Shown in pieces: positions 8,589 to 59,461 of a stretch of 64,000 nt of DNA. Numbering within the stretch: the stretch's first letter is position 1; each line of letters opens with the position of its first letter. Position numbers and translations under genes: made by a program. The notes under the pieces are model-generated. The model saw only the letters and a program-made list of their open reading frames with translations, was not told the origin of the DNA and made no database searches. The stretch is from Ignavibacteria bacterium (GTDB lineage: Bacteria; Bacteroidota; Ignavibacteria; Kapaibacteriales; UBA4661), in contig JACVZY010000025.1 of the NCBI GenBank assembly GCA_014654705.1, positions 4,640 through 68,639 of the forward strand, in the 5' to 3' direction.

Positions 8589-11165
8589 TTACGCCACAAA
8601 TCCAGATTTTGAAAGCGGCATCATCACCTCAAACGTACTGCCTTTACTTTGCTCGCTCTTTACCGATACCGTGCCACCATGCGCTTCTACAATCGTTTTG
8701 ACGTAGTTCAGCCCCAAGCCAAACCCTTTCACATCATGCCTGTTACCGGTTGGAACACGATAAAATTTCTCAAAAATCTGTTTCTGCGCTTCTCGTGTCA
8801 TACCGATACCGTTGTCCTGTATCGTTACCGCAAGTCCAGATGCAGTGTTGCGCGTTGAAACGATAATGTGTGGCGCATCTGGTGTGTATTTATTCGCATT
8901 GTCTAGTAAGTTGACGATGACGTTTCTGAAATGCGCTTCGTCCGCCTGCAAAATGGGCGTATGTGCTTCTAAACGCAGTTCAATACGACCTTGCTTTTGC
9001 TCTAACTGCAGCGCCAATGATTCAGCGACCGTCTCGATAAGTTGGTGTACATTGGTGGGAACAAGTTTGAGATTAAGCTCACCCCTGTCCATCTGTGCGG
9101 CTTGCAGCACTTTTTCAACGTGACCGGCAAGGCGCTTATTTTCGTCGTGGATGATATTCACAAAGCGCTCCACACGGACGCTTTCGCTCCGCACGTGGTT
9201 ATCTTTTAGCGCCTCGCTTGCAATAGAAATAGTCGCAATCGGCGTTTTGAGTTCGTGCGTCATGTTGTTGATAAAGTCCGTTTTCATGTCCGAGAGCTTT
9301 TTTTGCTTCACGAGCGCAAGCAAGGTAAAACCAAAGCAACCCATAATCAGCATCAAGAAGAGTGCCGACGAACCCAGCACAGGAGCGATACCTGCCAGTG
9401 TCAGTCCTTGCTGTTGGTCAGGAAAATGAATAGTCAAATAGTCTTTTTCGTCGCCACCCAGAATATCATTGGGAAAAAGCTGCACCCGAAATTCAGAGGT
9501 ACGAAGTGCTGCTGAAGCATGAACCGTTACGCGCTCAGGGTTGCTCGCGGTGGAAGCACGTACTATCAGCATAGAATCTTGCTTTTTAAGCACCTTGCGC
9601 CGCACTGAGGCGGGCATTTCTGCCCCGTGCAGAATTCCGTACTCATAACGTGCATTTACGCCGTTGCCACGCAGTTCAGCCGCCAGCAACGCATCCAAAT
9701 CGGTAAGCGGAACGCGCTCTAGTGCGGATTGCTTCCGACCAACCATATTTTCAAGGATATTTTCAATAAGGTCAACCTTATCAAGAATTTTACCAATGGT
9801 GTCACGTGATTGTGTGCGAGGTTCGGTAGAATTTTGTGCGTGGGCTTCCTTTTGCTTGTTTGCCGCCACACTCTGCTCGGCTCTGTGGAGCTGCGGTGCG
9901 GAGTGTTTCTTTGCTACCGATGGCGATTTCGGTGCAGCCTCTACGGAAGAAGCCGGTGCGGAGGGCTGTTCGGGCGGCGGGGACGGATTCATTGGGCTAC
10001 CCAATGGCATCATACGCATTTCAAAGCCAAACGAAGCCATATCTTGCCACGTCTGGCGAACTGCCATATTAAAGAGCGAATCTAAATCGCGTGTGTTTAC
10101 GCCCTGCATACGACGCAAACGCTCAATTTGTTGTTGCGACTTGGCAAATTCTCGTTGAAAATGGGCACTGAGTTGCCGTTCATTCAGGCGCATCAACTCT
10201 CGTTGGGCTTCTCGTTGAGCGTCGCGCGGGGACTCACGCTTGGTTATTACTTCACGGCGGTCTGTGCTGCCACTACTTGTGCTGCCACTACTTGGGTTTT
10301 CTATGCCGCGCTCTGCTGCGCTCATCTTATCTTCGAGTGTTTTTGAACCGTAAACTGAGTATGCTCCCGTTGCTCCTGATGCACGACGAAAACGCTGAAG
10401 AATAGAGTCGCGTTTATTGGCTTTTCCGTTCGGAATAAAGAATCGAAAGGGCTGCCCGTTGCCCGTCGGAATTGTTACCACAAGCCCTTGTGGTGGAGCA
10501 GGCGTCTGGGGAGGCATTTGGTGCTGGACATTGGGTGCGGGCTGAGAATGAGTAGCATCAGAGCGTTCGCTGCGAGCACGCGCACCAGATGAGCGCTCAC
10601 GCGATGAGGAGCTTTCGCGCGAGGAATTAAAAGAGACGTTGCCTCCATCAATGTGCATCTCAAAACTATTGCTACCATCCTGAACGCTTAGAAAAGGGGC
10701 ATTGTTTTTTGAAAATGCATTTTTCTCTGCACTTGATGATGATTTATTCGAGTTCGCTTTGTTCATAGTCACCGCAGAGGAATCTGTCATAGCTTGTTTT
10801 GCTGTTTCCGTGGCTTTCCGACTTAGCGGTGCTGTGCGTGGTGGTAATACGGAAGGATTTGTCGGTGCTACATCCGCTTCCGTAATTTGCAAAGGCTCGG
10901 CTTTACGGCTTGTTGGCATAGTCCGGCGCAATTTTGCTGCCTCTGCTGTTTTACGCACATCATTGAGACTCTGCATAATCAGCGCTTTGGTCTCTTTGAT
11001 TTCGAGCTGACGTGCAACATTGTTAAGCGCACGATGGACGTGCTCCTTGAAAAGACTTTGCTCTAGCGCCGACGCCCGCGCAAGCCAATATACTTGCACA
11101 ATAATGATACCCAACAACCCGATGAGCATCAGTGCGAGAATTGTCCAGATGGTTCGCTTTTTCAT
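8589..11165 (-). CDS. sensor histidine kinase with a very long low-complexity region between two TM helices
   Basis: TM1 is at the N-terminus (ILALMLIGLLGIIIVQVYWLA). About 570 aa of Ser/Pro/Gln/Ala-rich sequence follows. TM2 is LFLMLIMGCFGFTLLALV. The HisKA H-box is MTHELKTPIATI, and the HATPase_c domain carries the DNGIGM and GLGL motifs. Confidence 0.85.
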   Translation of the reverse strand: MKKRTIWTILALMLIGLLGIIIVQVYWLARASALEQSLFKEHVHRALNNVARQLEIKETKALIMQSLNDVRKTAEAAKLRRTMPTSRKAEPLQITEADVAPTNPSVLPPRTAPLSRKATETAKQAMTDSSAVTMNKANSNKSSSSAEKNAFSKNNAPFLSVQDGSNSFEMHIDGGNVSFNSSRESSSSRERSSGARARSERSDATHSQPAPNVQHQMPPQTPAPPQGLVVTIPTGNGQPFRFFIPNGKANKRDSILQRFRRASGATGAYSVYGSKTLEDKMSAAERGIENPSSGSTSSGSTDRREVITKRESPRDAQREAQRELMRLNERQLSAHFQREFAKSQQQIERLRRMQGVNTRDLDSLFNMAVRQTWQDMASFGFEMRMMPLGSPMNPSPPPEQPSAPASSVEAAPKSPSVAKKHSAPQLHRAEQSVAANKQKEAHAQNSTEPRTQSRDTIGKILDKVDLIENILENMVGRKQSALERVPLTDLDALLAAELRGNGVNARYEYGILHGAEMPASVRRKVLKKQDSMLIVRASTASNPERVTVHASAALRTSEFRVQLFPNDILGGDEKDYLTIHFPDQQQGLTLAGIAPVLGSSALFLMLIMGCFGFTLLALVKQKKLSDMKTDFINNMTHELKTPIATISIASEALKDNHVRSESVRVERFVNIIHDENKRLAGHVEKVLQAAQMDRGELNLKLVPTNVHQLIETVAESLALQLEQKQGRIELRLEAHTPILQADEAHFRNVIVNLLDNANKYTPDAPHIIVSTRNTASGLAVTIQDNGIGMTREAQKQIFEKFYRVPTGNRHDVKGFGLGLNYVKTIVEAHGGTVSVKSEQSKGSTFEVMMPLSKSGFVA

Positions 11166-16748: not shown

Positions 16749-18476
16749 TTAATTCGTCTTACCCGGCTCGGTTGGAAAGCCCAGAATTGGCGGCTTTGCT
16801 TGCGATTTCGCTTTTTTCTGTGCTTCTATCACATTCACGAGCAAACTGGGCGACGATGCCGAAACCGGCACACCACCTGATTCCGCACCGCAAACACCAT
16901 TAAAAACACCCATATCATTTCCGGCAACAGTAATCTGCTTGAATGTTGTGAGTGGTGTCCCGATGAGGTCAACACCGCGTACAACCTCGTCGGGGCGACC
17001 ATCGGTGAAAATTTTATAGACCAGAAGCGGCAGCACATTGAACGCATTCGGCATCGTGCGGTTCGTGAAGGTGAAGCCGCCTTGAATTTCCACAAAGTAT
17101 AAGCCGTATTCCTTGCCTTGACGCTTGCACTCAGCGCGGAGCATGGTGCGGAGCGTGTCGAAAGGAACGGTCTTTGCTGCTTTCACAAGCAGGTTTGATT
17201 GGCGCGACACGACGGGGAAGCCTGCTTGTCTGCGCCCGTGTCCGTTGGAATTGGGCATTTGGTCAATGGGAGCGCGGGACATCAGAAACTCGCGGAACAC
17301 ACCATTTTTCACGGTTGTTACCTGTTGCCCCGGCACACCTTCATCGTCGAATTTGTAATATCCGGCAAGGTTCTGCCCGGCAAGCGAGCGCAAAGCTGGA
17401 TCAAAAACAACATCTACAAAGTCAGGAAGTATGCGCTCTCCAACAAGGTTTTTGAACGTTTGGCTCGAATTGACATCTTTCTGACGATGCCCTTCGATGC
17501 GATGCCCAAAAATTTCATGGAAAAACACGCCTGCCGCTTCGCCGGATAAAATCGCCGGACCGGAATATGTCTCCATGAGAGGCGCAGTGCGGAGTTTACC
17601 CAAAAGCGTCGTCATGTCAAGAATTTCTTTGCGCATCACGCTTTCGCTGGGAACGCTGTCTGCCGTGAACGCAAAATAGCTGCGGAAGAGCGGCAATGAC
17701 ATTCCGTCATCAGCTTTGGTGCGCCCTTGAGAGAACACGCGCACGTAGGAATCGCTCGTCTGAATCGTCGTGCCTTCGCTATTGACAAAGTACCGATGAA
17801 TTACTTCTGCACGGAAATATACTTCTCCACCATAGATTTTCGGGTCGGCAGCAAAAAGCGCCGAAAGCCGACGCAAGCGCTCACGCCATGCGTCTGTGTT
17901 CACCACAAGGGTTTGGAGCGGCTCGCTGTACGAGGACGGCTTTTCTCTGGAGAAGTCGCCGGATGAATCTTCTTCTTTCACCTTCACAGCACGGTTGCTG
18001 ACAACCTTCAAGTAGCGCTCTGCGGCTGATTTGTACTGGCGGTCGGTTGTTGCCCAAATTGTCGTCCGAATTGAACCAATATCATCATCAAGCGGAATCT
18101 GTGTGCCTCGTGAAAATCCACCCATCTCGAAGTTTGTACCACGAATCTGGCGTTTATTATCAAGGTCATAATTGCCGACACGCACCTCCACATCAAGTGT
18201 CCGCGTGCGGTTGGAATCGTCAATGACGATTTTTCCGAAGGATGCGGTTAGAGTAACATACTGCGTTTCGGTGATGGCATATGAGACAAAATACGGCGGG
18301 TTTGCTTCTCCTTTGAGGTCCGTCATGGTGCGCTGCATCTCGGTTTTCATTGCCTCCAGAATTGGCGATTGTTTGGTCTGTGCGAGAGTATTACTGACAA
18401 ACAAGTATTGAATGGGTACGAAAATGACCGTTGCGACAGCTATACGAAAGAACGAGCGTTGTGGGCGTTGAGACAT
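16749..18476 (-). CDS. secreted TldD/PmbA-family metallopeptidase (TldD-like, catalytic motif intact)
   Basis: It has a signal peptide and the HExxxH-type motif HEIFGHRIEGH. It is a paralog of the gene at 54671..56458. Confidence 0.75.
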   Translation of the reverse strand: MSQRPQRSFFRIAVATVIFVPIQYLFVSNTLAQTKQSPILEAMKTEMQRTMTDLKGEANPPYFVSYAITETQYVTLTASFGKIVIDDSNRTRTLDVEVRVGNYDLDNKRQIRGTNFEMGGFSRGTQIPLDDDIGSIRTTIWATTDRQYKSAAERYLKVVSNRAVKVKEEDSSGDFSREKPSSYSEPLQTLVVNTDAWRERLRRLSALFAADPKIYGGEVYFRAEVIHRYFVNSEGTTIQTSDSYVRVFSQGRTKADDGMSLPLFRSYFAFTADSVPSESVMRKEILDMTTLLGKLRTAPLMETYSGPAILSGEAAGVFFHEIFGHRIEGHRQKDVNSSQTFKNLVGERILPDFVDVVFDPALRSLAGQNLAGYYKFDDEGVPGQQVTTVKNGVFREFLMSRAPIDQMPNSNGHGRRQAGFPVVSRQSNLLVKAAKTVPFDTLRTMLRAECKRQGKEYGLYFVEIQGGFTFTNRTMPNAFNVLPLLVYKIFTDGRPDEVVRGVDLIGTPLTTFKQITVAGNDMGVFNGVCGAESGGVPVSASSPSLLVNVIEAQKKAKSQAKPPILGFPTEPGKTN

Positions 18477-26152: not shown

Positions 26153-26947
26153 TTAATAGTTGAAGCGAACATCAGTCGAGCGAAGCATATTTTCAATTCT
26201 GCGCAACTCGGTTTCCGAAATTGGATTTGCATTGAGTTGAATCATCTCAAGATTTTTGAGCTTACCCATTGTGGTCGGCAATTTATCAATCTTGTTGAAA
26301 CGCAAATTAAAGATGCGCAGTTTTGTTAGCTTTACCACATCTGCCGGCACTTCGGTGAGGCGATTGCCACCGAAATCCAAGATAGCGAGGCTGGTCATCC
26401 CGCATACTTCTTTCGGAATCTTGGTAATTTGATTTGCCGTAAAGTACAATACCTTCAGGTTTTTCAGTTTTGGAATAGACGCCGGTACTTGCGTAAATTC
26501 ATTTTTGCCAAAATCTACGGATTTGAGTTTTTTGAGATTAGCAAACTCAGCCGGAACAGTTGTCAATTTGTTACCGTAAAGGCTAAGGGTGTGCAGGTTC
26601 ACAAGTTTGCCGATTTCGGGTGGCAAGGAGGTGAGATTTTTCTCGTGCAAGTCCAAAAATTCTACGTTCTCCGGCTCTTTCAGAGCATCTTCGATGGACT
26701 CAAAGCGCTTCGCATTTTTTTGGAGCGAATCCAGCACTCCCATTTCGGGGTCCGGTTTACGGTCGGGTGCGAGCGAAGCAGGCTTGCCACCTGATTCTGT
26801 CGGCAGTGTCGCTTGTGTGGTGCTTACTTTCTTTTTTGCTTTTTTGTTAGCGGTGGATTTTGCTTGCTGTGCTTGTGTGCTGTTTGGCGCGAGGCTTACT
26901 CCAAAGAGTAATGCGCAGGTAATAATGCCGGAAAGAATACGCTTCAT
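26153..26947 (-). CDS. leucine-rich-repeat (LRR) surface protein with a signal peptide
   Basis: A signal peptide and a Lys/Ala-rich linker precede tandem repeats of the form LxxLPxxIGxLxNLxxLxLxxNxL. Confidence 0.8.
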   Translation of the reverse strand: MKRILSGIITCALLFGVSLAPNSTQAQQAKSTANKKAKKKVSTTQATLPTESGGKPASLAPDRKPDPEMGVLDSLQKNAKRFESIEDALKEPENVEFLDLHEKNLTSLPPEIGKLVNLHTLSLYGNKLTTVPAEFANLKKLKSVDFGKNEFTQVPASIPKLKNLKVLYFTANQITKIPKEVCGMTSLAILDFGGNRLTEVPADVVKLTKLRIFNLRFNKIDKLPTTMGKLKNLEMIQLNANPISETELRRIENMLRSTDVRFNY

Positions 26948-28949: not shown

Positions 28950-30788
28950 TTACCGCACCACACTCACCAGACCGCTTTGCGTCTTGCTACCTGCTTCCAA
29001 GCGGTAGCCATATACGCCGCTTGGAAGCCCGGCACTTTGCCAAACTAACTGATGCCGACCTGCCGAGAACACGTTATCCACGACCGTTTGCAATGGTGCG
29101 CCCAGCATTGTGTACGTCGTCAACTTGACGTTACTCGCTGTTGGCAATGTGAACGTAAAGGTTGCCTCATCGCTCGTCGGGTTTGGATAGACAGCTTCGA
29201 GTGTCGGCTCTCCTCCCTTCGTTTCTTGAACTGCACTCATCACTCGCAGCGCTTTTGCTGCTTGCACTGCGGCAGCTGCGTTTACTCGTCCCCAACCGTA
29301 GTACATATCCCACCCTGGCACGTCTTCACTTGCCGAACCGACACCATCAATAGCTGTATTTTTCAGAATAGTACGCACTTCGTCAAGCGTCAGTCTGGGC
29401 TGAACGCTCAACATTAACGAGACGATACCACTAACAATGGGGGTTGCTTGCGATGTGCCGCACCAATTAGTTACTACGCCATCGGTGTTTCGATAGCCAG
29501 AGATTTGCTCTCCGGGCGCAACCACGAGAAGGTGAGCACCATAGTTACTGCCACTGGTGGTACTAAAGCAAAATGGCACTGCACGTGCGCCCTGATTATT
29601 GATTGCTCCGACGGCAATAGATTCGGTAAACGCCGCCGGATAATAGGGAACATTGTTATTTGTGTTCATCATACACGCCACGACAATAGCACCCTTGCTA
29701 TGCGCATAGATTATTGCATCCTCCAAAGCACTGCTTCTTCCTGCACCTCCTACGCTCAAATTCAGCACTTTCGCACCTTTGTCCACAGCAAAGCGTATAC
29801 CGTTAATCCACCACGAATACTGCCCCGAATTACTGCTGTTCAGAATTTTTACCGATAAAATTTTACATTTCCAGTCCACTCCCGCAATACCAACGCCGTT
29901 ATTACCCTTTGCCGTAGCTATACTCATTACGTTCGAGCCGTGTCCGTGGTCGTCTGTTGGGTCGGCATCGTTATTTACGTAATCATATCCCTCAAGCAAA
30001 CGCCCAGCAAAATCAGGCATTGCAGCAGCCCCGACTGGTTGTCCAGAGTCGAGAATAGCAACAATTATGGAATCAACCCCTTGCGTGAGAGACCATGCTG
30101 GCGTAAGATTTGCATCGACACCAATGCTACCGTTCTTTGTACCAATTCTTTGTCCCGTATTTTGCAGCCCCCATTGTTGCACAAAATAAGGATCGTTGGG
30201 GGTAAGTGATTGAAGTTTAGCTACGTTTTTTCGCACATCGTCATCGGCTTTTTCCATCACCTGCTCTGAATTATCCCCTTCACCTGCAAACACACCACCA
30301 CCACTGCCGATATAATCTGGTTCGGCATATTCCAGTGATGAAGCGAGTGAGCCAGATGCTGCTATTGCTTGCAGGACACCTTGCGCTTCATATCCTGACC
30401 GGCATTCCGCAACATAAATTCTATCCAGCCCACACTGATAGGCTTCTTTGTTGGTATGGTCAAGATTCGGGCATAATTGCTGCAATGTTTGAATGCCAAC
30501 ACCGTGCGCCAGCGAGAGTATTGGTGCTGACTGCTGCCCCGCAATCTCGCCGATATTCCATACTGCGCCCACTTCGGAACTTCCTTTTCGGCTTTGCACG
30601 GGCAGCGCGGCTTTGAGTGCTTGCACTTCGGCTTCTAGTGCCGATTGTGCTTTGACTTTCAGAAGCATCCGCTTCGGATGTGCCGGATGAGTCAGCGACT
30701 CTTGAGCAAGAATTGGAAAAGAAGCCGCGCAGAAAAAAAGTACAACACTGCATACCATTGGGATAAAAACATGAATCCTTGTATTCAT
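28950..30788 (-). CDS. S8-family subtilase with a T9SS C-terminal sorting domain
   Basis: It has a signal peptide and an I9-like propeptide. The catalytic Asp, His (DDHGHGSNV) and Ser (GTSQATPIVSGI) are present. The C-terminal ~80 aa (LEAVYPNPTS...GVYGYRLEAG...) form a T9SS CTD. Confidence 0.88.
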   Translation of the reverse strand: MNTRIHVFIPMVCSVVLFFCAASFPILAQESLTHPAHPKRMLLKVKAQSALEAEVQALKAALPVQSRKGSSEVGAVWNIGEIAGQQSAPILSLAHGVGIQTLQQLCPNLDHTNKEAYQCGLDRIYVAECRSGYEAQGVLQAIAASGSLASSLEYAEPDYIGSGGGVFAGEGDNSEQVMEKADDDVRKNVAKLQSLTPNDPYFVQQWGLQNTGQRIGTKNGSIGVDANLTPAWSLTQGVDSIIVAILDSGQPVGAAAMPDFAGRLLEGYDYVNNDADPTDDHGHGSNVMSIATAKGNNGVGIAGVDWKCKILSVKILNSSNSGQYSWWINGIRFAVDKGAKVLNLSVGGAGRSSALEDAIIYAHSKGAIVVACMMNTNNNVPYYPAAFTESIAVGAINNQGARAVPFCFSTTSGSNYGAHLLVVAPGEQISGYRNTDGVVTNWCGTSQATPIVSGIVSLMLSVQPRLTLDEVRTILKNTAIDGVGSASEDVPGWDMYYGWGRVNAAAAVQAAKALRVMSAVQETKGGEPTLEAVYPNPTSDEATFTFTLPTASNVKLTTYTMLGAPLQTVVDNVFSAGRHQLVWQSAGLPSGVYGYRLEAGSKTQSGLVSVVR

Positions 30789-30837: not shown

Positions 30838-32325
30838 TTACCGCACAACATTCACAAAACCGCTTTGCACCGAAGCGCCGTCCACTTCCAAACGGTAGCC
30901 GTACACACCGCTCGGCAAACCCATGCTCTGCCACGTCATGCTGTGCCGTCCCGCAGGGAACGGGGCGTCCGACACCGTTTGCAGGATGCTTCCAAGCGTC
31001 GTGCAGACCGTGAGCTTTACACGGCTTGCTTTGGAAAGGCTGAGAGCGAAGGTAACATCGCCGCTCGTGGGATTCGGATAGACCGCTTCCAGTAATGGCT
31101 CCAAAGCCTGTGCATCCCGCACTGACGTTATGGTGTAAGCATAGGGAACAGGCTGCGTGGCGAGAGCTTCCAAGCGCAAAAGACCATGACTGCGGGAAGC
31201 ACACGAATCATTCGCCACGTAGCGGATAATGGGGAAATTCTGCCCAATGGATTGCGGCGTGTACCGCAGCCATAAGCGTTCCAGCTTTGGCTGCCCGCTT
31301 CGCCATTCCGCTCGCAAGGAAGGCTGCCACGTGCCTGTGGAAGAAAGCGAATACTCGACACCGGAAACGGCACTCAAGGACAGCCAGCCGCTTGTAGCAG
31401 TGCTACTCGTCAGTATTGGGACAGAGGCGATAGTGCTTCGAGCGATGGACATTTGCCCGAAGGTAAGTTTCACTCCTTGAAATTGTCGTTGCTCAAGAGA
31501 AATCCCCTCAGCCTGTGGCACTGACATACCGAAGACTGATGTTCGTGGTTGAACTAGAAAGAAACATGGAACAGACCAACCAAGATTGTCTGTTGCAATT
31601 ACAGTACAAAGTATTGACTGACAAAGGTTGGAGGTCTTATTAAGACCGTAATACAGAGTCGGTCTTGGGTTTACATTACCCTGAATGAGTGTGCTATCTA
31701 AATTCTTTACACGCACTGCTACAACAGATTGATTCTCAGATTCGGCACTATATTTCATTCCTGTTTGCAAAGAAATAGTGTTTTGAGAAACTCCTATTGC
31801 AACGTTATTAAAATTGAAAAAAACTGAATTGACTCCACCAAAATCGTTTCGCCATTGCGGAGATTCAAGTTCAATACGGTCTTCGGTAGGTGTTTGTCCC
31901 GTAGGAATCAAAAGTGCCTTATCTTGTATTTGGTTGGTCACTATCGGCGGCACTGTCTTCGGCACAGGCATCGTGAAGCGCCACACTTCCGACCATGCAC
32001 CAACATTCATGCTGTCCAGCCGTGCGCGGACACGCCAGAATGCCGTCAGTTCCGCAGGCACATATGGAAGCGATGTTCGGCGAATGGTGATGGTGTTTTG
32101 GGTGGCACTCAACGTCTGCACCGTTGGCAGAGTAAAGAGGCTATCCCACCCGATAGCAACTTCATAACGCGAGGCATCAGAAAGAGGCTTCCACCGAAGG
32201 CGGATAAGAGAATCGGCTACGAGAGTAGCATTTGGAGGAGTAACTAAGCGAGGCTGCGCGTAAGCAAGGGGCATAGCACCAAGCGACAACGCAGCAATCA
32301 TAACAAACATGAGTACGGAACGCAT
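30838..32325 (-). CDS. T9SS-CTD cargo protein with an N-terminal fibronectin-III-like domain (tandem paralog 1)
   Basis: The start is the internal ATG MRSVLMFVMIAALSLGAMPLAYAQ, which gives a signal peptide. The upstream in-frame extension is the duplicated intergenic block and is not coding. The C-terminal CTD is YPNPTSGDVTF...GVYGYRLEVDG. Confidence 0.8.
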   Translation of the reverse strand: MRSVLMFVMIAALSLGAMPLAYAQPRLVTPPNATLVADSLIRLRWKPLSDASRYEVAIGWDSLFTLPTVQTLSATQNTITIRRTSLPYVPAELTAFWRVRARLDSMNVGAWSEVWRFTMPVPKTVPPIVTNQIQDKALLIPTGQTPTEDRIELESPQWRNDFGGVNSVFFNFNNVAIGVSQNTISLQTGMKYSAESENQSVVAVRVKNLDSTLIQGNVNPRPTLYYGLNKTSNLCQSILCTVIATDNLGWSVPCFFLVQPRTSVFGMSVPQAEGISLEQRQFQGVKLTFGQMSIARSTIASVPILTSSTATSGWLSLSAVSGVEYSLSSTGTWQPSLRAEWRSGQPKLERLWLRYTPQSIGQNFPIIRYVANDSCASRSHGLLRLEALATQPVPYAYTITSVRDAQALEPLLEAVYPNPTSGDVTFALSLSKASRVKLTVCTTLGSILQTVSDAPFPAGRHSMTWQSMGLPSGVYGYRLEVDGASVQSGFVNVVR

Positions 32326-32374
32326 AGACACGGGGACAATAAGGGGACAAAACTGATTGTCGGCTAATATACGC

Positions 32375-32410
32375 AAAAACGCCGAAAGAGAATGCTCTTT
32401 CGGCGTTTTT
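32375..32410 (-). terminator. intrinsic terminator after paralog 2 (copy of the rplQ terminator)
   Basis: The sequence aaaaacgccgaaagag-aatgc-ctctttcggcgttttt forms a 16-bp stem flanked by A and T runs. Confidence 0.7.
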
Positions 32411-32431
32411 GCGTAATCATCTACAACTTCA

Positions 32432-33964
32432 TTACCGCACAACACTGACAAATCCGCTCTGCACCGAAGCGCCGTCCACTTCCAAACGGTAGCCGTACAC
32501 GCCGCTCGGCAAGCCCGCGCTCTGCCACGTCATGCTGTGCCGTCCCGCAGGAAACGGAGCATCCGACACCGTTTGCAGAATGCTCCCAAGCGTCGTGCAG
32601 ACCGTGAGTTTCACACGGCTTGCTTTGGAAAGGCTGAGAGCGAAGGTAACATCACTACTCGTGGGATTCGGATAGACCGCTTCCAGCACTGGCTCCAAAG
32701 CCTGTGCATCCCGCACTGACGTTATGGTGTAGGCGTAGGGAACAGGCTGCGTGGCGAGAGCTTCCAAACGTAAAAGACCGTGATTACGAGTATCGCATGA
32801 ATCATTCACCACATAACGGATAATGGGAAAGTTCTGCCCGATGGCTTGCGGCGTGTACCGCAGCCATAGGCTTTCCAGCTTCGGCTGCCCACTTCGCCAT
32901 TCCACACGCAAGGAAGACTGCCATGAACCTGTAGAAGAAAGTGAATACTCCACGCCGGGAACTGCACTCAAGGACAGCCAGCCGCTTGTAGCGGTGCTGC
33001 TCGTCAGGATTGGGACAGAAGCGATAGTGCTTTGTGTGATAGGCATTTGAATACTTTGTTTAATGGGCATTTGACCAGAGATAAATTTTACCCCACTATT
33101 ATATTGAATAATTTGCCCAAAAGTCTCAAGTGAAAGTCCGACAACTTTGGGAAATATTGTGGTTATGCTGGGGCATGGTTTAACTAAATAGTAGCAAGGA
33201 GTTGACCAACCAGAGCGACTTGTAGCGATAACAACATTCAATATTGATTGACAGGTATCTGCACCCCGATATATGGTATAGTAGCAAGTTGGTCTCGGAT
33301 TCCACCCAGTAACTACACTGTCCCACTCAATTATTCGAGATTTAGCCACATTTATCTGGGCAAATGAATATGCTTCATATTTTATTCCTGCTGGTACAAT
33401 ATAGTATGAAGAAATGCTTTGAAATGAATTTGGATACCTGAATGTATTAGGGTCTAAAAATATATGACTAGGAACATTATCTGGTCGCCAATTTGGAAAT
33501 TCGAGTTCAAAGCGGTCTTCATTGTAAGGTGCTTGTCCAGTAGGAACAAGGAGCAATTTATCCGGTATTTGATTAACCACTATCGGCGGCATTGTCTTCG
33601 GCACAGGCATCGTGAAGCGCCACACTTCCGACCATGCACCCGCGTTCACACTGTCCAGCCGTACGCGGACACGCCAGAATGCCGTCAGTTCCGCAGGCAC
33701 GTATGGAAGCGAGGTGCGGCGAATGGTAAGGGTGTTTTGGATAGCACTCAACGTCTGCACCGTTGGCAGAGTAAAGAGACTATCCCACCCGATAGCGACT
33801 TCATATCGCGAGGCATCAGAAACGGGATTCCACCGGAGGCGGATAAGAGAATCAGCTACGAGAGTAGCATTTGCAGGAGTGATTAAGCGAGGCTGCGCGT
33901 AAGCAAGGGGCATAGCGACAAGCAACAACGCAGCAATCATAACAAACATGAGTACGGAACGCAT
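32432..33964 (-). CDS. T9SS-CTD cargo protein with an N-terminal fibronectin-III-like domain (tandem paralog 2)
   Basis: Same architecture as paralog 1. The N-terminal ~180 aa and C-terminal ~170 aa are nearly identical to paralog 1, while the central ~170 aa are only ~35% identical. Confidence 0.8.
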   Translation of the reverse strand: MRSVLMFVMIAALLLVAMPLAYAQPRLITPANATLVADSLIRLRWNPVSDASRYEVAIGWDSLFTLPTVQTLSAIQNTLTIRRTSLPYVPAELTAFWRVRVRLDSVNAGAWSEVWRFTMPVPKTMPPIVVNQIPDKLLLVPTGQAPYNEDRFELEFPNWRPDNVPSHIFLDPNTFRYPNSFQSISSYYIVPAGIKYEAYSFAQINVAKSRIIEWDSVVTGWNPRPTCYYTIYRGADTCQSILNVVIATSRSGWSTPCYYLVKPCPSITTIFPKVVGLSLETFGQIIQYNSGVKFISGQMPIKQSIQMPITQSTIASVPILTSSTATSGWLSLSAVPGVEYSLSSTGSWQSSLRVEWRSGQPKLESLWLRYTPQAIGQNFPIIRYVVNDSCDTRNHGLLRLEALATQPVPYAYTITSVRDAQALEPVLEAVYPNPTSSDVTFALSLSKASRVKLTVCTTLGSILQTVSDAPFPAGRHSMTWQSAGLPSGVYGYRLEVDGASVQSGFVSVVR

Positions 33965-34013
33965 AGACACGGGGGCGATAAGGGGACAAAAGAGATTGTC
34001 GGCTAATATACGC

Positions 34014-34049
34014 AAAAACGCCGAAAGAGAATACTCTTTCGGCGTTTTT
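34014..34049 (-). terminator. intrinsic terminator at the end of the ribosomal supercluster (after rplQ)
   Basis: The sequence aaaaacgccgaaagag-aatac-tctttcggcgttttt follows the rplQ stop at 34075. Confidence 0.75.
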
Positions 34050-34074
34050 GTATTTTTGGCATTCAGCAAAGAAT

Positions 34075-34671
34075 TTATTCCGCTGCTTTTTCTTCCGGTG
34101 CTGCCTCTGGAGCGGCATCTTCTACAACGGCTTCCGCTTCTTCTACTTGCGCTACGGCTGCTGCTACGCTTGCGGCTACTTGCTGCTGAACGCGCTGCTG
34201 TGCGGGATTTTGCGGAACGTCTTTGCGTTTTTTCTTGCGCCCGAGTGTGCGCTTACCGTCTTGTGCTTCTGCCCAATCAACCAATTCAATCACGGCTGTG
34301 CGACCACCATCACCATGACGGGTACCGGTTTTGATGATGCGGCAATAGCCACCGGGGCGATTTTCGACAACGGGAGCAATCGCATCAAAAAGCTCTTGCA
34401 AAACAGCTTTGTCTTTGATGTAGCGCCCCACGGTACGGCGTGCATGAACGTCAACGGTGTGACCATTTTGCAATTGACCGGCTTGTTCAGCCAAGTACGC
34501 ATTTTTCGCTTTGGTAATAAGTCGCTCAACGAAGGGGCGCAATTCTTTTGCTTTTGCTTCGGTGGTAGCGATTTTTTTATGCTGCAAGAGCGAGGTCGCC
34601 ATGTTGTTGAGCATTGCTCTGCGATGGCTCGCCGTGCGCTTGAGTTTTCTGCCGGAACGTAAGTGTCTCAT
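34075..34671 (-). CDS. rplQ: 50S ribosomal protein L17 with an acidic/Ala-rich C-terminal extension
   Basis: Starting at the ATG gives MRHLRSGRKLKRTASHRRAM..., which is colinear with E. coli L17 as far as IELVD. About 65 extra C-terminal residues follow (QQRVQQQVAASVAAAVAQVEEAEAVVEDAAPEAAPEEKAAE). Confidence 0.92.
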   Translation of the reverse strand: MRHLRSGRKLKRTASHRRAMLNNMATSLLQHKKIATTEAKAKELRPFVERLITKAKNAYLAEQAGQLQNGHTVDVHARRTVGRYIKDKAVLQELFDAIAPVVENRPGGYCRIIKTGTRHGDGGRTAVIELVDWAEAQDGKRTLGRKKKRKDVPQNPAQQRVQQQVAASVAAAVAQVEEAEAVVEDAAPEAAPEEKAAE

Positions 34672-54670: not shown

Positions 54671-56458
54671 ATGTTCAAGACCCTTTTACTTTCTAGTTTT
54701 ATCCTCTCGTATTGCTTGCCAATTCTTACTTACTCGCAACTAAGTCAAGCACAGACACCACAAAACCAAGAGATTCTGCGTGCTATGCGCGACGAGATTA
54801 AGCGCTCCATGCAAGATCTACGACTTCCGGCTTTAGAAAAACCGTATTATATTCAGTATTCTCTTGTGCAGAACGCATCAACCAATATCAAGGCATCTTT
54901 TGGAAGCCTTACCGAATCTCATCTCTCCCAAGACAAGCGCCTTACTGTTGGCTTGCGCGTCGGCTCGGCACAATTCGATAACACGAATTTTTTTGATCCC
55001 GCGCTTGGCTTCTTTGGCTCCAGCGACGATGAAGAGCGCTTCAAAAGCCGTTCTATTCCCAGTGAATTAGACTATTCAGCGCTTCGCCGTGAACTTTGGC
55101 TTGCTACCGATGCCGCCTATAAGCAGTCAGCCGAGCTGTACGCAAAAAAACAAGCCGCTCTCAAAAACCGCGTTCGCATAGATACTCTTGCAGATTTTAC
55201 GCTCTTTCCCGCTGCTTCAAGTGTTGACACGATTCCCATACCGACACTCGACAAAACCTATTTTGAGCGACTTGCAGTAGATTTATCGGCGATATTTCGA
55301 GACTTTCCTGCCGTTACACTCTCCACCGTTGCAGTTGAATACAACACCAAACAAGAACTTTTCGTGAATACCGAGGCACGGGAATATGTACGTACAGATT
55401 TGATTATCGGAATAGAGATAGTTGCCACGGCGCAGGCAAAAGACGGAATGCCGCTTGCACAGGTGTACAGCACATACAGCCGCACTCCAAGCGGTCTGCC
55501 AAGCCGAGATTCTTTGCTCAAAGCCACGCGGGCATTGGCGCAAAAACTCTCTCAGAGCCTTACCGCCCCCATTGCACAGGCATATTCCGGACCCGTTCTC
55601 CTAGAAGATCAAGCAGCAGCAGAAGCCTTCTTACAGATATTTGCACCTAACCTTGTGACACAAAGGTCTCCCGTTACCGAGCGAGGTATTAGTGATAACT
55701 CACAAAATGCAACCTTCCAGAACAAAGTTGGTGCGCGAGTCATGCCTGAGTTTCTGTCTGTCTCGGTTACACCTTCACAAGCGGTTTACAATACCACACA
55801 ACTCGTAGGCGCATACCGCATTGACGACGAGGCAATTCCGGCGGAGTCTTTCCAAATTATCAAAGGCGGCTATTTGAAAGGTCTTATGGCTTCGCGCACT
55901 CCCACACGGCGCATAAAAACGTCCAACGGACATAACCGTGGTGGCGCGGCTATGTTCAGCATTCTGGACGTTTCAGCAGGCAAAGACCGTACCCAACCCT
56001 TCAAAAAACTGCGTGCGAGAATGCTGCAACTCTGCAAAGACCGCGATTTGCCATATGGAATAGTTGTTCGGAAAATCCTGAATCCGAATATCCTGATGAC
56101 GACCCTTTACAGCCTCACTGAAGGCGAATTTCCCTTTGCCCGCACGCCCGGGCAAATGACCGCACTTGAAGCCTATCGTGTCTATCCCGATGGACGAGAA
56201 GAACTTATACGAGGATGCGATATTGCCGGAATGACAGTCCAATCTTTTAAGGAAATCCTTGCTGTTGGCGACCGCAAAGCTGCCTACAACTGCTATGCGT
56301 TGCCTGTTACCGCGGCATTCTTTTCCGGTGGGGCGCAGTTTTTGCCCGCTTCGGTTATTTTACCGGCACTCCTCTTTGAGGATATCGAAATTCGCCCTAT
56401 TGAAGATGATTTTACCAAACCACCCATCTTGCCGCATCCTTTCTTTTCTCGCAAGTAA
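54671..56458 (+). CDS. secreted TldD/PmbA-family protein lacking the HExxxH motif (TldE/PmbA-like pseudoprotease partner)
   Basis: It has a signal peptide. It is clearly a paralog of the gene at 16749..18476 (ILRAMRDEIKRSMQDL versus ILEAMKTEMQRTMTDL). The position of the catalytic HEIFGH motif reads LQIFAPNL here. Confidence 0.7.
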   Translation: MFKTLLLSSFILSYCLPILTYSQLSQAQTPQNQEILRAMRDEIKRSMQDLRLPALEKPYYIQYSLVQNASTNIKASFGSLTESHLSQDKRLTVGLRVGSAQFDNTNFFDPALGFFGSSDDEERFKSRSIPSELDYSALRRELWLATDAAYKQSAELYAKKQAALKNRVRIDTLADFTLFPAASSVDTIPIPTLDKTYFERLAVDLSAIFRDFPAVTLSTVAVEYNTKQELFVNTEAREYVRTDLIIGIEIVATAQAKDGMPLAQVYSTYSRTPSGLPSRDSLLKATRALAQKLSQSLTAPIAQAYSGPVLLEDQAAAEAFLQIFAPNLVTQRSPVTERGISDNSQNATFQNKVGARVMPEFLSVSVTPSQAVYNTTQLVGAYRIDDEAIPAESFQIIKGGYLKGLMASRTPTRRIKTSNGHNRGGAAMFSILDVSAGKDRTQPFKKLRARMLQLCKDRDLPYGIVVRKILNPNILMTTLYSLTEGEFPFARTPGQMTALEAYRVYPDGREELIRGCDIAGMTVQSFKEILAVGDRKAAYNCYALPVTAAFFSGGAQFLPASVILPALLFEDIEIRPIEDDFTKPPILPHPFFSRK

Positions 56459-56488
56459 AAAATTTTGCTACGATTTATGGTAAAGATC

Positions 56489-59461
56489 ATGCACACTACA
56501 CGAAGAAGTCGGACATATCTTTCTATAAGCCTTGATAAAGCGCTCTCCAAAGCCTCACAAACGATTTTTTATCGAATTTCTAGCCTTTGTACGGGGGTAA
56601 GACTCGTCATTCCCTCAAAGGCATCAATAAGGTTTTTAGTAGGTACATTATTTTACCTCTCCTCGCTATCTGCTCAGGCACAAACACCTTCATACCCCCA
56701 ACATGTTGTATTGGTCAAATTTAGAGCTAATTCCCCACTCTTCACCAAATGGGAATCTAGTAAGCGGCGGGGTACTATTACAGAATGGCAGGATATTCTT
56801 CACACCCACACAACTGAAGCGCTCTTCGACGATAACTTAGTGCAAAGCGTCATTGAACGTTTCAGCCGTCTAACCGAAGACAATCCCGCAAAACGCGCCT
56901 CCACCCTAACTCGTTGGTGCAAAATTCGCTTCTCTGCACCAATAGACCCTGCTTTGCTGTCGGGCAAACTCAAGAATTTGCCCGATGTGGAATATGCCGA
57001 ACCGCTTTACCGCCGTACACTCACAGACACTCCCAACGACCCGTTTATTAACTCACAGCAGTATTTGTCAGTCATTCGAGCTTTTGAAGCGTGGGATGTT
57101 GTGCGGACGCAAGCTGATACGTCGCAGCGCGTCATTGTGGCAATTGTTGATAGCGGAGTTGACTATACCCATGAAGATTTAGCAGCAAATATTTATGTCA
57201 ATCCGGGCGAAAGCGGCAACGATGCACAAGGGCGCGATAAACGCACCAATGGCGTTGACGATGACCGCAACGGCAGAGTGGATGATTGGCACGGTTGGGA
57301 TTTCAGCACCGATGCCGATGCCACAACGGAAAGCAACGACCCCATGCCCATCGGCAATACACACGGCACACACGTCGCAGGAATAGCAGGAGCCGTGACA
57401 AATAATGGTAAAGGCGTAGCAGGTGTAGCCAGAGGCATTTGGCTTTTACCAATCAAATGCAGCCCTCCAAACTCAGGGGATGTACCAAACGGTTTTCGTG
57501 GTATTATCTATGCGGCAACCATGGGTGCAAAGATTATTAATTGCAGTTGGGGCGATACTTCGCGCTCCCAAGCAGAGCAAGAAACGATTGATATTGCCAC
57601 CGAACTCGGTTCATTAGTGGTCGCAACCGCCGGTAATGATCGTCGCTATACAGCTTTTTATCCGGGTTCTTACGACAACGTTTGCTCAGTAGCATGGTTG
57701 GAAAATGATGACACTCATTTTTTCGGCAATTACCACGAAACAGTAGATATTGGCGCTCCCGGCTCAAGTATTTATGCGACATTTACTGATAATCGCTATG
57801 GCTCTATGGGCGGAACATCTATGTCTGCTCCTATGGTTTCGGCAGCAGCAGCACTTGTCAAAATGCGCTTCCCACAATATTCACCCCAACAAATTTTCTC
57901 CCAACTGAAAGCTACTGCCGACAATAACGACCGCCAGAATCCCGACCTTGTGGGCTTCATCGGCACTGGTCGGCTGAATGTTTTAGCTGCCGTTCAAACC
58001 GTCAATCCGCCGTTTATTGAAATTCGTGGCTATACCGTGCAAGATGAAAATAATAATGGACTTCTCGAATCGGGCGAGCGTGTAACGGTGCAACTCAACC
58101 TTGCCAATGTCTTTGCCCCTATTGCGGGAGCACGTATCGCAATGCGGACGACTATCACTACCGGCAGTATGTTCTACCCGTTCTTCGACGATACCGTGAG
58201 GCAAGTTCCTACCTTAGCAGCAAATGAAACACGTACAAATGCTGTCAACTTCAGCTTTCGCCTCACGACGAATTTATCGCAAGATTTTGCCGTCCCCCTG
58301 CTTTTTTCCATTTTTGATGCGAACGGAAAACTCATTGGTCGTGATGCTCTCAGGCTTTCTGTCAATAAATCGTACCAAACCCTGCGCGGTAATGCGCTTG
58401 CGCTCACCGTAAACAGTCGTGGTAGCTTTGGCTTCAATGACTTCCCAATCAATATGCAAGGCGACGGATTATTTTATCAGTTGCGCGATACCAATAATCT
58501 CATTTACGAAGGCGGAATCATTGTAGCAAGCGGATCGGACAGCATCTCATCTTCTGTGCGAAACACCTCAACGCAACGTGACTTAGCTTTTCTAGCAACA
58601 TCGCTCCTTACTGTTTCGACAGCATCAGATTCATCACTTCTGACCGCCAAGGCAAGTTTCATCGACCGCGCTTCCGATACCCAAGCAGGCGTGAAGATTG
58701 ACCAAACAGTGCAGCAATACCGACAATTCCCACGCCCAAATATGGTCATCTCGTCGTACATCATCACGAACACATCAAACCGTGCCTTTTCCAATTTATC
58801 CGCAGGATTATTTTTTGATTGGGATATTGCCAACTATAACATCAATGAGACATTTTGGGATACCGATTGTGGATGCGGTATTGCAAAAAGCATCAATGGC
58901 AACTTCCCTGTCATCGGCGTAAAGCTCCTTTCTCCACAAACACCAACATTTTACCCGATTCAGCTTGGAGATACGGCACAAAACGCAATCACGCTGAACG
59001 ATGGCTTCCCCCGCAGCGATAAATACCGCGCCCTTTCCAGTGGCATTATTTCATCGCGCAAATCCGGCGATATTGCTCACGTCGTCGGTGCAAGCGGCAT
59101 GACACTTCAGATTGGTTCATCCGCTTCAGTTCGGTTCGCCATCGCAGGTGGATTGTCTTTGGATGAAATTCGTACTAGCTTTCGAGTACTCAATCAATCA
59201 GATAGCACTCCCAATCGCCTCTATCCTAATCCCGCAAGCAGCAGTGCTTTTTTGGAATACGAACTCGCAAGTGACCAAATAGTAACCGTAGAACTTTTGA
59301 ACATACTTGGACAAATAGTCGCAACACCCGTAAATCACCTTCAGACTAAGGGCTGGCAGCAAATAGCATTTGCCCTAGATTCACTCAGCCCGGGTGTCTA
59401 TTGGATTCGTTTGCGCGGTGCAACGCTCTCCTTTAGCAAGCCGCTTGTTATCTCACGTTAG
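56489..59461 (+). CDS. large S8-family subtilase with an I9-like propeptide and a T9SS C-terminal sorting domain
   Basis: The catalytic Asp (VAIVDSGVDYTHEDL), His (HGTHVAGIAG) and Ser (GTSMSAPMVSAAAAL) are present. The C-terminus YPNPASSSAF...GVYWIRL is a T9SS CTD. The start is uncertain: the in-frame ORF opens at 56465, and the hydrophobic signal-like segment begins about 45 aa after the first ATG. Confidence 0.85.
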   Translation: MHTTRRSRTYLSISLDKALSKASQTIFYRISSLCTGVRLVIPSKASIRFLVGTLFYLSSLSAQAQTPSYPQHVVLVKFRANSPLFTKWESSKRRGTITEWQDILHTHTTEALFDDNLVQSVIERFSRLTEDNPAKRASTLTRWCKIRFSAPIDPALLSGKLKNLPDVEYAEPLYRRTLTDTPNDPFINSQQYLSVIRAFEAWDVVRTQADTSQRVIVAIVDSGVDYTHEDLAANIYVNPGESGNDAQGRDKRTNGVDDDRNGRVDDWHGWDFSTDADATTESNDPMPIGNTHGTHVAGIAGAVTNNGKGVAGVARGIWLLPIKCSPPNSGDVPNGFRGIIYAATMGAKIINCSWGDTSRSQAEQETIDIATELGSLVVATAGNDRRYTAFYPGSYDNVCSVAWLENDDTHFFGNYHETVDIGAPGSSIYATFTDNRYGSMGGTSMSAPMVSAAAALVKMRFPQYSPQQIFSQLKATADNNDRQNPDLVGFIGTGRLNVLAAVQTVNPPFIEIRGYTVQDENNNGLLESGERVTVQLNLANVFAPIAGARIAMRTTITTGSMFYPFFDDTVRQVPTLAANETRTNAVNFSFRLTTNLSQDFAVPLLFSIFDANGKLIGRDALRLSVNKSYQTLRGNALALTVNSRGSFGFNDFPINMQGDGLFYQLRDTNNLIYEGGIIVASGSDSISSSVRNTSTQRDLAFLATSLLTVSTASDSSLLTAKASFIDRASDTQAGVKIDQTVQQYRQFPRPNMVISSYIITNTSNRAFSNLSAGLFFDWDIANYNINETFWDTDCGCGIAKSINGNFPVIGVKLLSPQTPTFYPIQLGDTAQNAITLNDGFPRSDKYRALSSGIISSRKSGDIAHVVGASGMTLQIGSSASVRFAIAGGLSLDEIRTSFRVLNQSDSTPNRLYPNPASSSAFLEYELASDQIVTVELLNILGQIVATPVNHLQTKGWQQIAFALDSLSPGVYWIRLRGATLSFSKPLVISR

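Follow-up and report, generated by a model that had tools for sequence, protein, structure and literature searches.

We analysed a 64-kb window of DNA (the whole stretch presented above, here W) which carries, on its minus strand, two adjacent genes for putatively exported proteins with closely similar ends and divergent centres. The upstream copy, gene B, and the downstream copy, gene A, lie between rplQ and a gene for an S8 subtilase. Both open reading frames (ORFs) of the preliminary description, of 510 and 495 aa, were confirmed, with the Met that opens the signal peptide (MRSVLMF...) taken as the start codon. The metagenome-assembled genome (MAG) of the pair is labelled 'Ignavibacteria bacterium'; among species-representative genomes, the nearest is a Candidatus Kapaibacterium sp. 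MAG, and we take the host, Candidatus Kapaibacterium, to belong to the phylum Bacteroidota. Matched loci are numbered L001-L017 and related proteins P00xx, and the comparison set is made up wholly of metagenome assemblies (MAGs and contigs). The features of the locus are as follows (CTD, C-terminal domain; T9SS, type IX secretion system).

34075-34671, minus: rplQ (ribosomal protein L17), which closes the ribosomal-protein/rpoA cluster and is the conserved anchor on the upstream side of the island
34012-34051, minus: hairpin between rplQ and gene B, from a terminator scan; 17-18-bp stem; -27.3 kcal/mol, z = -9.3
32432-33964, minus: gene B, upstream copy, 510 aa, core type 'IV'; MBD1207736.1 / H9535_04875, identical to P0010
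33044-33580, minus: variable core of copy B, residues 129-307; the same type recurs in P0016 (JGI metagenome)
32432-33043, minus: conserved 3' block of copy B, pre-CTD domain and CTD
32373-32412, minus: second hairpin copy, between genes B and A; RNA fold -35.2 kcal/mol, z = -10.3
31942-32412, minus: conserved 5' block of copy A, with hairpin, leader, signal peptide and Fn3-like domain
30838-32325, minus: gene A, downstream copy, 495 aa, core related to type 'I'; MBD1207735.1, identical to P0001
31450-31941, minus: variable core of copy A, residues 129-292, with the predicted beta-sandwich at ~125-262 and a variable linker at 263-292
30838-31449, minus: conserved 3' block of copy A, with the pre-CTD domain (~293-405) and the type-A T9SS CTD (~412-495, at 30841-31092)
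28950-30788, minus: S8 subtilase with T9SS CTD (Pfam and NCBIfam), adjoining gene A on its 3' side

Genes A and B are tandem copies of a 1,639-nt unit with the hairpin at its upstream edge. Sliding nucleotide identity between the copies is 90-97% over a stretch that opens ~105 nt before the ATG and runs to around codon 128, falls to 33-58% in the core, and is 78-97% (mostly 85-95%) from about codon 293 to the stop; outside the limits of the unit it drops at once to random level. By segment, residues 1-128 are 92.7% identical in nucleotides and 90.6% in amino acids, residues 293-495 are 89.5% and 91.6% identical, and residues 159-292 are 39.5% identical in amino acids at aligned positions, with many indels. 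The near-identical ends and divergent core described earlier are confirmed, with revised lengths of the conserved ends (~128-158 aa rather than ~180 at the N-terminus, ~203 rather than ~170 at the C-terminus).

At the tandem junction, the stop codon is followed by TGAAGTTGTAGATGATTACG and then by the hairpin. This junction is identical in W, L007 (ENA) and L004 (JGI), and is common to lineages whose flanks are 86-92% identical. Because the same junction is found in three independent assemblies of two divergent lineages, the tandem arrangement is real, neither an assembly artefact nor recent. Mis-assembly, in which alleles of co-existing strains are joined into an artificial tandem or mosaic, has to be considered for any data that consist entirely of MAGs and contigs, and repeats with 90% identity are hard to assemble. 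However, the junction recurs in NCBI, ENA and JGI assemblies of different lineages, identical proteins have been recovered from several independent runs, and the single-copy loci are contiguous with long flanks, so we regard this explanation as highly improbable.

The hairpin consists of an A-tract, a GC-rich stem and a T-tract. It is kept in all 13 aligned upstream regions of related loci, and in L006 it carries a compensatory G-C to A-U change. It is probably the intrinsic terminator of the rplQ operon, acting in both directions, and also an upstream anchor for recombination. A scan for sigma-70-like promoters, whose consensus may not fit the host lineage, found none upstream of A or B and recognised none between the hairpin and the ATG. 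The intergenic gaps measure 106 nt (B/A) and 49 nt (A/S8), and no small ORF was found in either. A polymorphic toxin/immunity pair was also considered and rejected, as the variable part is internal and followed by ~200 conserved residues, and the gaps hold no small ORF.

Both proteins have a putative signal peptide, an Fn3-like domain, a cadherin-like beta-sandwich, a conserved Ig/Fn3-like 'stalk' domain and a type-A CTD, an order that bears out the layout given in the first reading, in which the third and fourth parts were called a variable core and a conserved pre-CTD segment. The signal peptide can be read directly from the letters (MRSVLMFVMIAAL...AYA/QP), as MRS, a hydrophobic stretch and AYA/QP, and AF2 gives a helix at residues 2-15. 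Our Pfam scans took in 29 ORFs of the window, leaving aside the ribosomal-protein cluster and a few short ORFs. The sole Pfam or NCBIfam detection on A and B is a sub-threshold T9SS type-A CTD. This is a full-length match in both cases, with PF18962 at 22.0 bits (cut-off 27) and TIGR04183 at 22.5 bits (cut-off 23) for gene A, and 21.7 and 21.9 bits, slightly under the same cut-offs, for gene B. Over their final 97 aa, the two proteins show 60-62% identity (E = 1e-29 to 1e-30) with the CTD of the neighbouring S8 protease, which itself passes TIGR04183 (29.1 against a cut-off of 23), and the NCBI name for protein A is T9SS type A sorting domain protein. The CTD-bearing subtilases at 28950-30788 and 56465-59461 suggest that a T9SS is in use in this organism. 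Both proteins would be exported by Sec and then by the T9SS, and displayed on the cell surface.

The Fn3-like domain spans residues 25-120 (31966-32253 in copy A). This region of A and B has no direct Pfam match at E <= 0.1, and BLASTP aligns it with every one of the 4-6 tandem repeats that are present in P0023, P0026 and P0030, which are larger T9SS proteins (E = 1e-8 to 1e-5); Pfam labels these repeats Ig_Rha78A_N, fn3 or Pur_ac_phosph_N. It is therefore Fn3-like, by transitive homology only. In a profile search, residues ~293-360 of the pre-CTD segment match other Fn3/Ig-like repeats of ~80 aa. A PDB sequence search with a profile of the core and pre-CTD segment gave only chance-level matches (E ~0.8).

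A profile of the family that excluded the Fn3 domain and the CTD matched only 46 proteins among 1.84 billion representatives. In a few of them the whole core (profile positions 2-158) is matched as a single stretch directly before a T9SS CTD. One such match is P0052, a protein of 2,921 aa (domain E-value 6e-32); P0058, P0060, P0061, P0062, P0067, P0073, P0085 and P0087 show whole-core matches of the same type. The other matches are repeat proteins, and those confirmed by Pfam as HYR proteins give weak, periodic matches to the C-terminal half of the core (2-20 bits per repeat; whole-protein E-values 4e-18 to 2e-5). A separate subset of matches covers the pre-CTD part. On A and B themselves there is no Pfam match to HYR (PF02494), and neither the Pfam cadherin models nor the HYR models give a significant hit.

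A full-length AF2 model from the 15-sequence family alignment was too poor for a fold search, with a predicted local distance difference test score (pLDDT) of 52. When distant homologs were added, residues 121-263 were modelled as a seven-strand beta-sandwich with an overall pLDDT of 75, and with values mostly of 72-95 over the fold, save for one low-confidence insert. The modelled fold is similar to cadherin/CADG (dystroglycan-type) domains, and on this model the core is a cadherin-like, dystroglycan-type beta-sandwich. The earlier suggestion of a displayed adhesin or binding module is plausible in the light of the predicted fold. Residues that define the fold are invariant in the family (Y192, P222-T223, C235, G249-W250-S251), and the motif NPRPT.YY....C.SIL..VIAT...GWS.PC..LV.P is present in both proteins as first described. 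The conserved cysteines noted at that time are reduced to one, as Cys235 is invariant across the family and the second, C254, is not. Core A and core B are homologous, two versions of a single domain, and the possibility raised at the outset that they are unrelated insertions did not hold.

Where distant relatives retain a FYDDNY[DN]P.TY loop, A and B have a variable insert, FFNFNNVAIGVSQ... and FLDPNTFRYPNSF..., respectively. In the A/B family this insert is 15-20 residues long, and no other part of the core varies more or is modelled with less confidence. Hypervariability is greatest in this insert replacing DDNYxP and in the linker after the domain. Acidic loop motifs of the DxDxD or DxNDN type bind Ca2+; neither was found in the A and B cores, which have the insert at that position. 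In P0052, residues 2695-2844 form a CTD-proximal domain very similar to the conserved-type core (PPVITNAIQDKQLLRPTGTAPTEDRIELESPQWRPD...DPRPTLYYAV), within a giant T9SS protein of another organism. This likeness suggests that the small family arose by capture of the terminal module of a large adhesin.

The family is rare. Among 5.8 billion clusters we found ~18 related proteins, all from one narrow clade, and wider scans of genomes and metagenomes added few loci (three from the genome scan, with L013 the sole informative one, and two from the metagenome scan). Throughout the family alignment the ends are nearly invariant and the middle is hypervariable. The position is constant as well: a family gene lies directly after rplQ and the hairpin in every locus for which the upstream region was recovered, and in all recovered loci it lies upstream of the same AtuA-ferredoxin and NTP-transferase genes. 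Ribosomal_L17 is called at the rplQ position in all related loci, and rplQ is 99% identical in W, L007 and L011.

What varies is the content between rplQ and the AtuA-ferredoxin gene. W and L007 have two copies and the S8 gene; L001, L006, L009, L010, L011 and L016 have one copy and the S8 gene; L004 and L005 have two copies and no S8 gene; L013 has one copy and no S8 gene; and L008 has one copy and a HicAB pair, HicA/HicB standing in place of S8. The S8 subtilase is thus itself part of the variable island, being present, absent or replaced in relatives (absent from L004, L005, L008 and L013). It is only 82% identical between W and L006, against flanks at 94-98%.

Comparison of near-identical backgrounds shows where the variation is located. 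In rpoA, rplQ, S8, the NTP-transferase gene and the AtuA-ferredoxin gene, W, L007 and L011 share 98-100% identity, yet they hold different sets of cores (IV and I' in W, II' and II in L007, III only in L011). Between W and L007, identity stays at 100% as far as 34037, drops to ~90% where gene B starts and to 30-50% in core B, recovers to 84-98% over the 3' end of B, the spacer and the 5' end of A, falls again to 51-67% in core A, and has returned to 99-100% when the stop codon of gene A is reached. The island of divergence is exactly the two genes. Two further loci with a similar background, L016 and L017 (S8 97.8% identical), carry a sixth core type. At least six core types are found in related backgrounds. 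Divergent alleles therefore occupy a single position in backgrounds that are nearly the same, and divergence is highest at this target and declines into the flanks. The interval between rplQ and the AtuA-ferredoxin gene thus constitutes, for the Candidatus Kapaibacterium population, a variable island of the replacement type.

It could be argued that the core is simply a dispensable spacer which drifts neutrally under relaxed constraint, with alleles that are not maintained. Core dN/dS (omega, the ratio of nonsynonymous to synonymous substitution) is 2-4 times that of the flanking domains, and indels are frequent, which speaks for this explanation. However, drift in place cannot saturate synonymous sites between strains whose flanks are 98-100% identical. 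Within one type the core is conserved across lineages, with omega at 0.18 (97% nucleotide identity) in one comparison and 0.19 (95%) in another, and the core folds with high confidence in its model around the invariant residues. Neutral drift of a spacer is very unlikely on this evidence.

Substitution rates indicate that the parts of the two genes differ in age. Comparing A with B, synonymous divergence (dS) is 0.21 in the Fn3-like N-terminal block (dN/dS 0.21), 1.56, and so saturated, in the core (dN/dS 0.33), 0.48 in the pre-CTD domain (dN/dS 0.11) and 0.27 in the CTD (dN/dS 0.09). Because purifying selection cannot hold synonymous sites, the common ancestor of the cores must be much older than that of the ends. 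The ends, at dS 0.2-0.5, are in turn far older than the flanks, which differ by 0-2% in nucleotides between W and L007. We also scanned dN/dS in 20-codon windows within allele types, where dS is not saturated. The highest values outside the core (~0.8) came from the signal peptide only.

The preliminary description had proposed either gene conversion homogenising the ends or diversifying selection on an exposed core. Combined, these give a history in which a recent tandem duplication was followed by intragenomic conversion of the ends and positive selection on the core. The copies are indeed adjacent direct repeats with ends ~90% identical, and core omega lies above the 0.09-0.21 of the ends. 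However, the excess of synonymous divergence in the cores shows that they are older, and not merely faster at the amino-acid level, while omega is below 1 everywhere, and no more than 0.5 in the 20-codon core windows within types. The ends of A and B (89-93% identical) are no closer to each other than to alleles of other genomes, and some foreign alleles are closer. Nearest neighbours of A and B switch every ~40 codons and are usually a foreign allele, and the longest exact tract shared by A and B is 48 nt, compared with 105-183 nt for some between-genome pairs. Both core types occur in other samples, and a junction shared by lineages with 86-92% identical flanks does not fit a recent duplication. 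We therefore find no support for conversion of the ends or for diversifying selection in the dN/dS sense, and consider this history improbable.

Alleles of other loci show the same independence of parts. One of the family genes of L004 (L004_2) shares 97% of core nucleotides with that of L001, with ends at 71% (N-terminal) and 83% (C-terminal); L011 and L010 are 87% identical in the core and 73-75% in the ends. The L013 gene is 91.8% identical to gene A over its full length, although the flanks of L013 are only 76-88% identical to W. Between the 'alpha' and 'gamma' backbones the gene ends are ~90% alike, against ~72-76% for the 'beta' backbone, which is phylogenetically closer. The core types of A and B are repeated in P0012 and P0016 from other metagenomes, and identical proteins have been recovered from independent data sets. 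Even the CTD is exchanged: the family genes at 8001-9470 of L009 and 3555-5081 of L010 carry an S8-type CTD (82-85% nucleotide identity to S8 CTDs), and the S8 protein of L010 ends in a family-like '...EVDGA...' CTD. On these sequence comparisons, leader/Fn3, core, pre-CTD domain and CTD each have a history of their own.

Programmed hypervariation, whether through a diversity-generating retroelement (DGR) or through silent copies used in a cassette or shufflon system, would also place the variation locally within an otherwise conserved gene. However, no reverse transcriptase or recombinase domain was found by Pfam among the 29 window ORFs, and the window contains no template repeat and no further core-like DNA. 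The differences involve many indels and span ~160 codons, and alleles recur unchanged in other samples. There is next to no chance that such a system operates within this window, in line with the first description, which had already set a DGR aside.

Taken together, the best explanation, and one that we hold to be probable, is a hotspot at which recombination in the population reassorts old allele classes of an exposed surface domain carried on a T9SS cargo architecture. The data show recombination among old alleles, within and between lineages, as the cores are saturated, the ends are young, core types cross lineages and near-identical flanks differ in core. In this explanation, the old classes of the core that circulate at the locus number at least six or seven, and homologous recombination transfers cores, entire genes and even CTDs from strain to strain and across species-level lineages. 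Homology for allele replacement would come from the terminator hairpin, the flanks and the conserved ends of the genes. Given the shared junction, the two-copy state probably arose once; tandem stacking gives some strains, W among them, two different variants, and two copies could collapse to one by unequal crossing-over between the ~500-nt, 90%-identical ends. Once at the surface, the protein would be anchored after CTD processing, as described for T9SS cargo (PMC10202324), and its exposed domain may be recognised by an antagonist or a partner. Rare alleles would then be favoured, and negative frequency-dependent (balancing) selection presumably maintains the allele classes. Phage would be the most likely selective agent, with grazers or partner recognition as further candidates.

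Several points weigh against this explanation or parts of it. The CTD scores of both proteins are slightly below the curated cut-offs, and Pfam scans of the 29 window ORFs found no T9SS machinery domains. No window, including those within allele types, has dN/dS above 1, and the core maximum is ~0.5, so positive or balancing selection is inferred from the genealogy and not demonstrated. Both the selective agent and the ligand are at present a matter of inference only. Finally, as all sequences are metagenomic, assembly of strain mixtures could inflate some of the mosaicism, though identical proteins recur independently.

A different role for the exposed domain should also be considered. To our knowledge, nothing has been reported on social behaviour in Kapaibacteria. 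The cadherin-like domain might be a homotypic receptor for self or kin recognition or for cell-cell adhesion, similar to TraA or the protocadherins, in which case two copies would broaden or combine specificities. Homophilic adhesion molecules share the predicted fold class, distinct classes of alleles are retained from lineage to lineage, and near-clonal strains differ in allele and copy number; TraA follows the same logic, with a polymorphic domain in a conserved receptor (PMC6626042, PMC5562445). However, no TraB-like partner, toxin or immunity genes were found nearby, among the ORFs of W or in related loci, and enemy-driven selection explains the pattern equally well, so that we consider a recognition receptor unlikely. 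We give similarly little credence to a more specific form of this idea, a T9SS-displayed, 'protocadherin-like' barcode for kin discrimination, in which alleles would define recognition groups and tandem stacking would produce combinatorial identities. If it were true, near-clonal strains with different alleles would be distinct social groups and not phage-escape variants.

Some neighbouring features should also be noted. The rplQ product is 198 aa long with an Ala/Glu-rich, low-complexity tail (...AAVAQVEEAEAVVEDAAPEAAPEEKAAE), and L17 of the relatives is 179-204 aa; a typical L17 is ~70 residues shorter than the rplQ product of W. At 26153-26947 (minus strand) W encodes a 264-aa leucine-rich-repeat protein with an apparent N-terminal signal sequence. 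Its position is conserved in related loci, where the 264-aa gene is listed with no Pfam match on record. In L010, an insertion sequence element (DDE_Tnp_1 and DUF4096 ORFs, 9867-10650) lies between the 264-aa gene and a glycosyltransferase gene; W is without it. A second, larger S8 subtilase of 998 aa is encoded at 56465-59461 (plus strand) and has a clear T9SS CTD (PF18962, 39.5 bits). Directly before it is a gene for a PmbA/TldD-like protein (54671-56458, plus strand), and another PmbA/TldD-like ORF lies at 16749-18476.

On the reading that we favour, recombination among old alleles, the locus provides a clean natural example, in an uncultured lineage, of how one surface-protein domain can persist in multiple ancient alleles that pass between strains and species, in a genome that remains almost clonal around it, even in the adjacent ribosomal-protein operon. 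It also reveals an undescribed small family of T9SS cargo (~20 known sequences) and a CTD-proximal, predicted cadherin-like domain of ~150 aa common to this family and to much larger T9SS proteins. The locus marks the likeliest site at which the cells meet whatever recognises them, be it phage, grazers or each other. In practical terms, it could serve as a strain-typing marker for the group and is a warning spot in MAG assembly. More generally, conserved ends and a divergent core in tandem paralogs need not imply gene conversion and positive selection.

Our literature search found no paper on hypervariable T9SS cargo in Kapaibacteria or Ignavibacteria. The pattern can be compared with systems from other bacteria. 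For 'metagenomic islands' that encode surface structures, phage-driven negative frequency-dependent selection, as in the constant-diversity model, is the usual explanation (PMC3909814, PMC2800850, PMC3782348). Like replacement-type flexible islands, the A/B locus has a fixed position between conserved genes and a differing surface component in near-identical strains. Unlike them, it consists of a small gene or gene pair with an optional protease, not a glycosylation or O-antigen cluster, and its variation is concentrated in one protein domain.

Flagellins (FliC; flaA/flaB of Campylobacter) have conserved ends for export and assembly, a hypervariable exposed centre, mosaic alleles produced by recombination and, in some cases, tandem paralogs; for flaA/flaB, intragenomic conversion is documented. 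The A/B genes share the conserved ends, variable centre, recombining alleles and tandem paralogs. However, their fold and secretion route are unrelated to those of flagellins, and the ends of the paralogs are not preferentially homogenised. TraA has a PA14-like variable domain and is sorted by MYXO-CTERM. As in TraA, an outer-surface receptor of Myxococcus xanthus, one polymorphic domain is set in conserved parts and natural alleles form discrete groups (PMC6626042, PMC5562445). A and B differ from TraA in their cadherin-like predicted fold, their T9SS CTD and the lack of a TraB-like partner among the nearby genes.

Compared to CADG domains and cadherin-like modules of the SraP type, the A/B core has its loop replaced by the variable insert of 15-20 aa, and a Cys added. 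The gingipain/HagA mosaics of Porphyromonas gingivalis are T9SS cargo that exchange near-identical repeats within the genome. The A/B locus similarly encodes T9SS surface proteins together with a protease and has recombining modules, with CTDs swapped with the S8 gene. However, its domains are different and the exchange involves ancient allele classes. Like the variable proteins of DGRs, A and B have a hypervariable domain localised within a surface protein; unlike them, they have neither a reverse transcriptase among the 29 ORFs scanned nor a template repeat in the window, many indels separate them, and their alleles stay the same from sample to sample. Therefore, the A/B proteins form a new, very small protein family with a known evolutionary pattern, that of flagellins, TraA and replacement islands.

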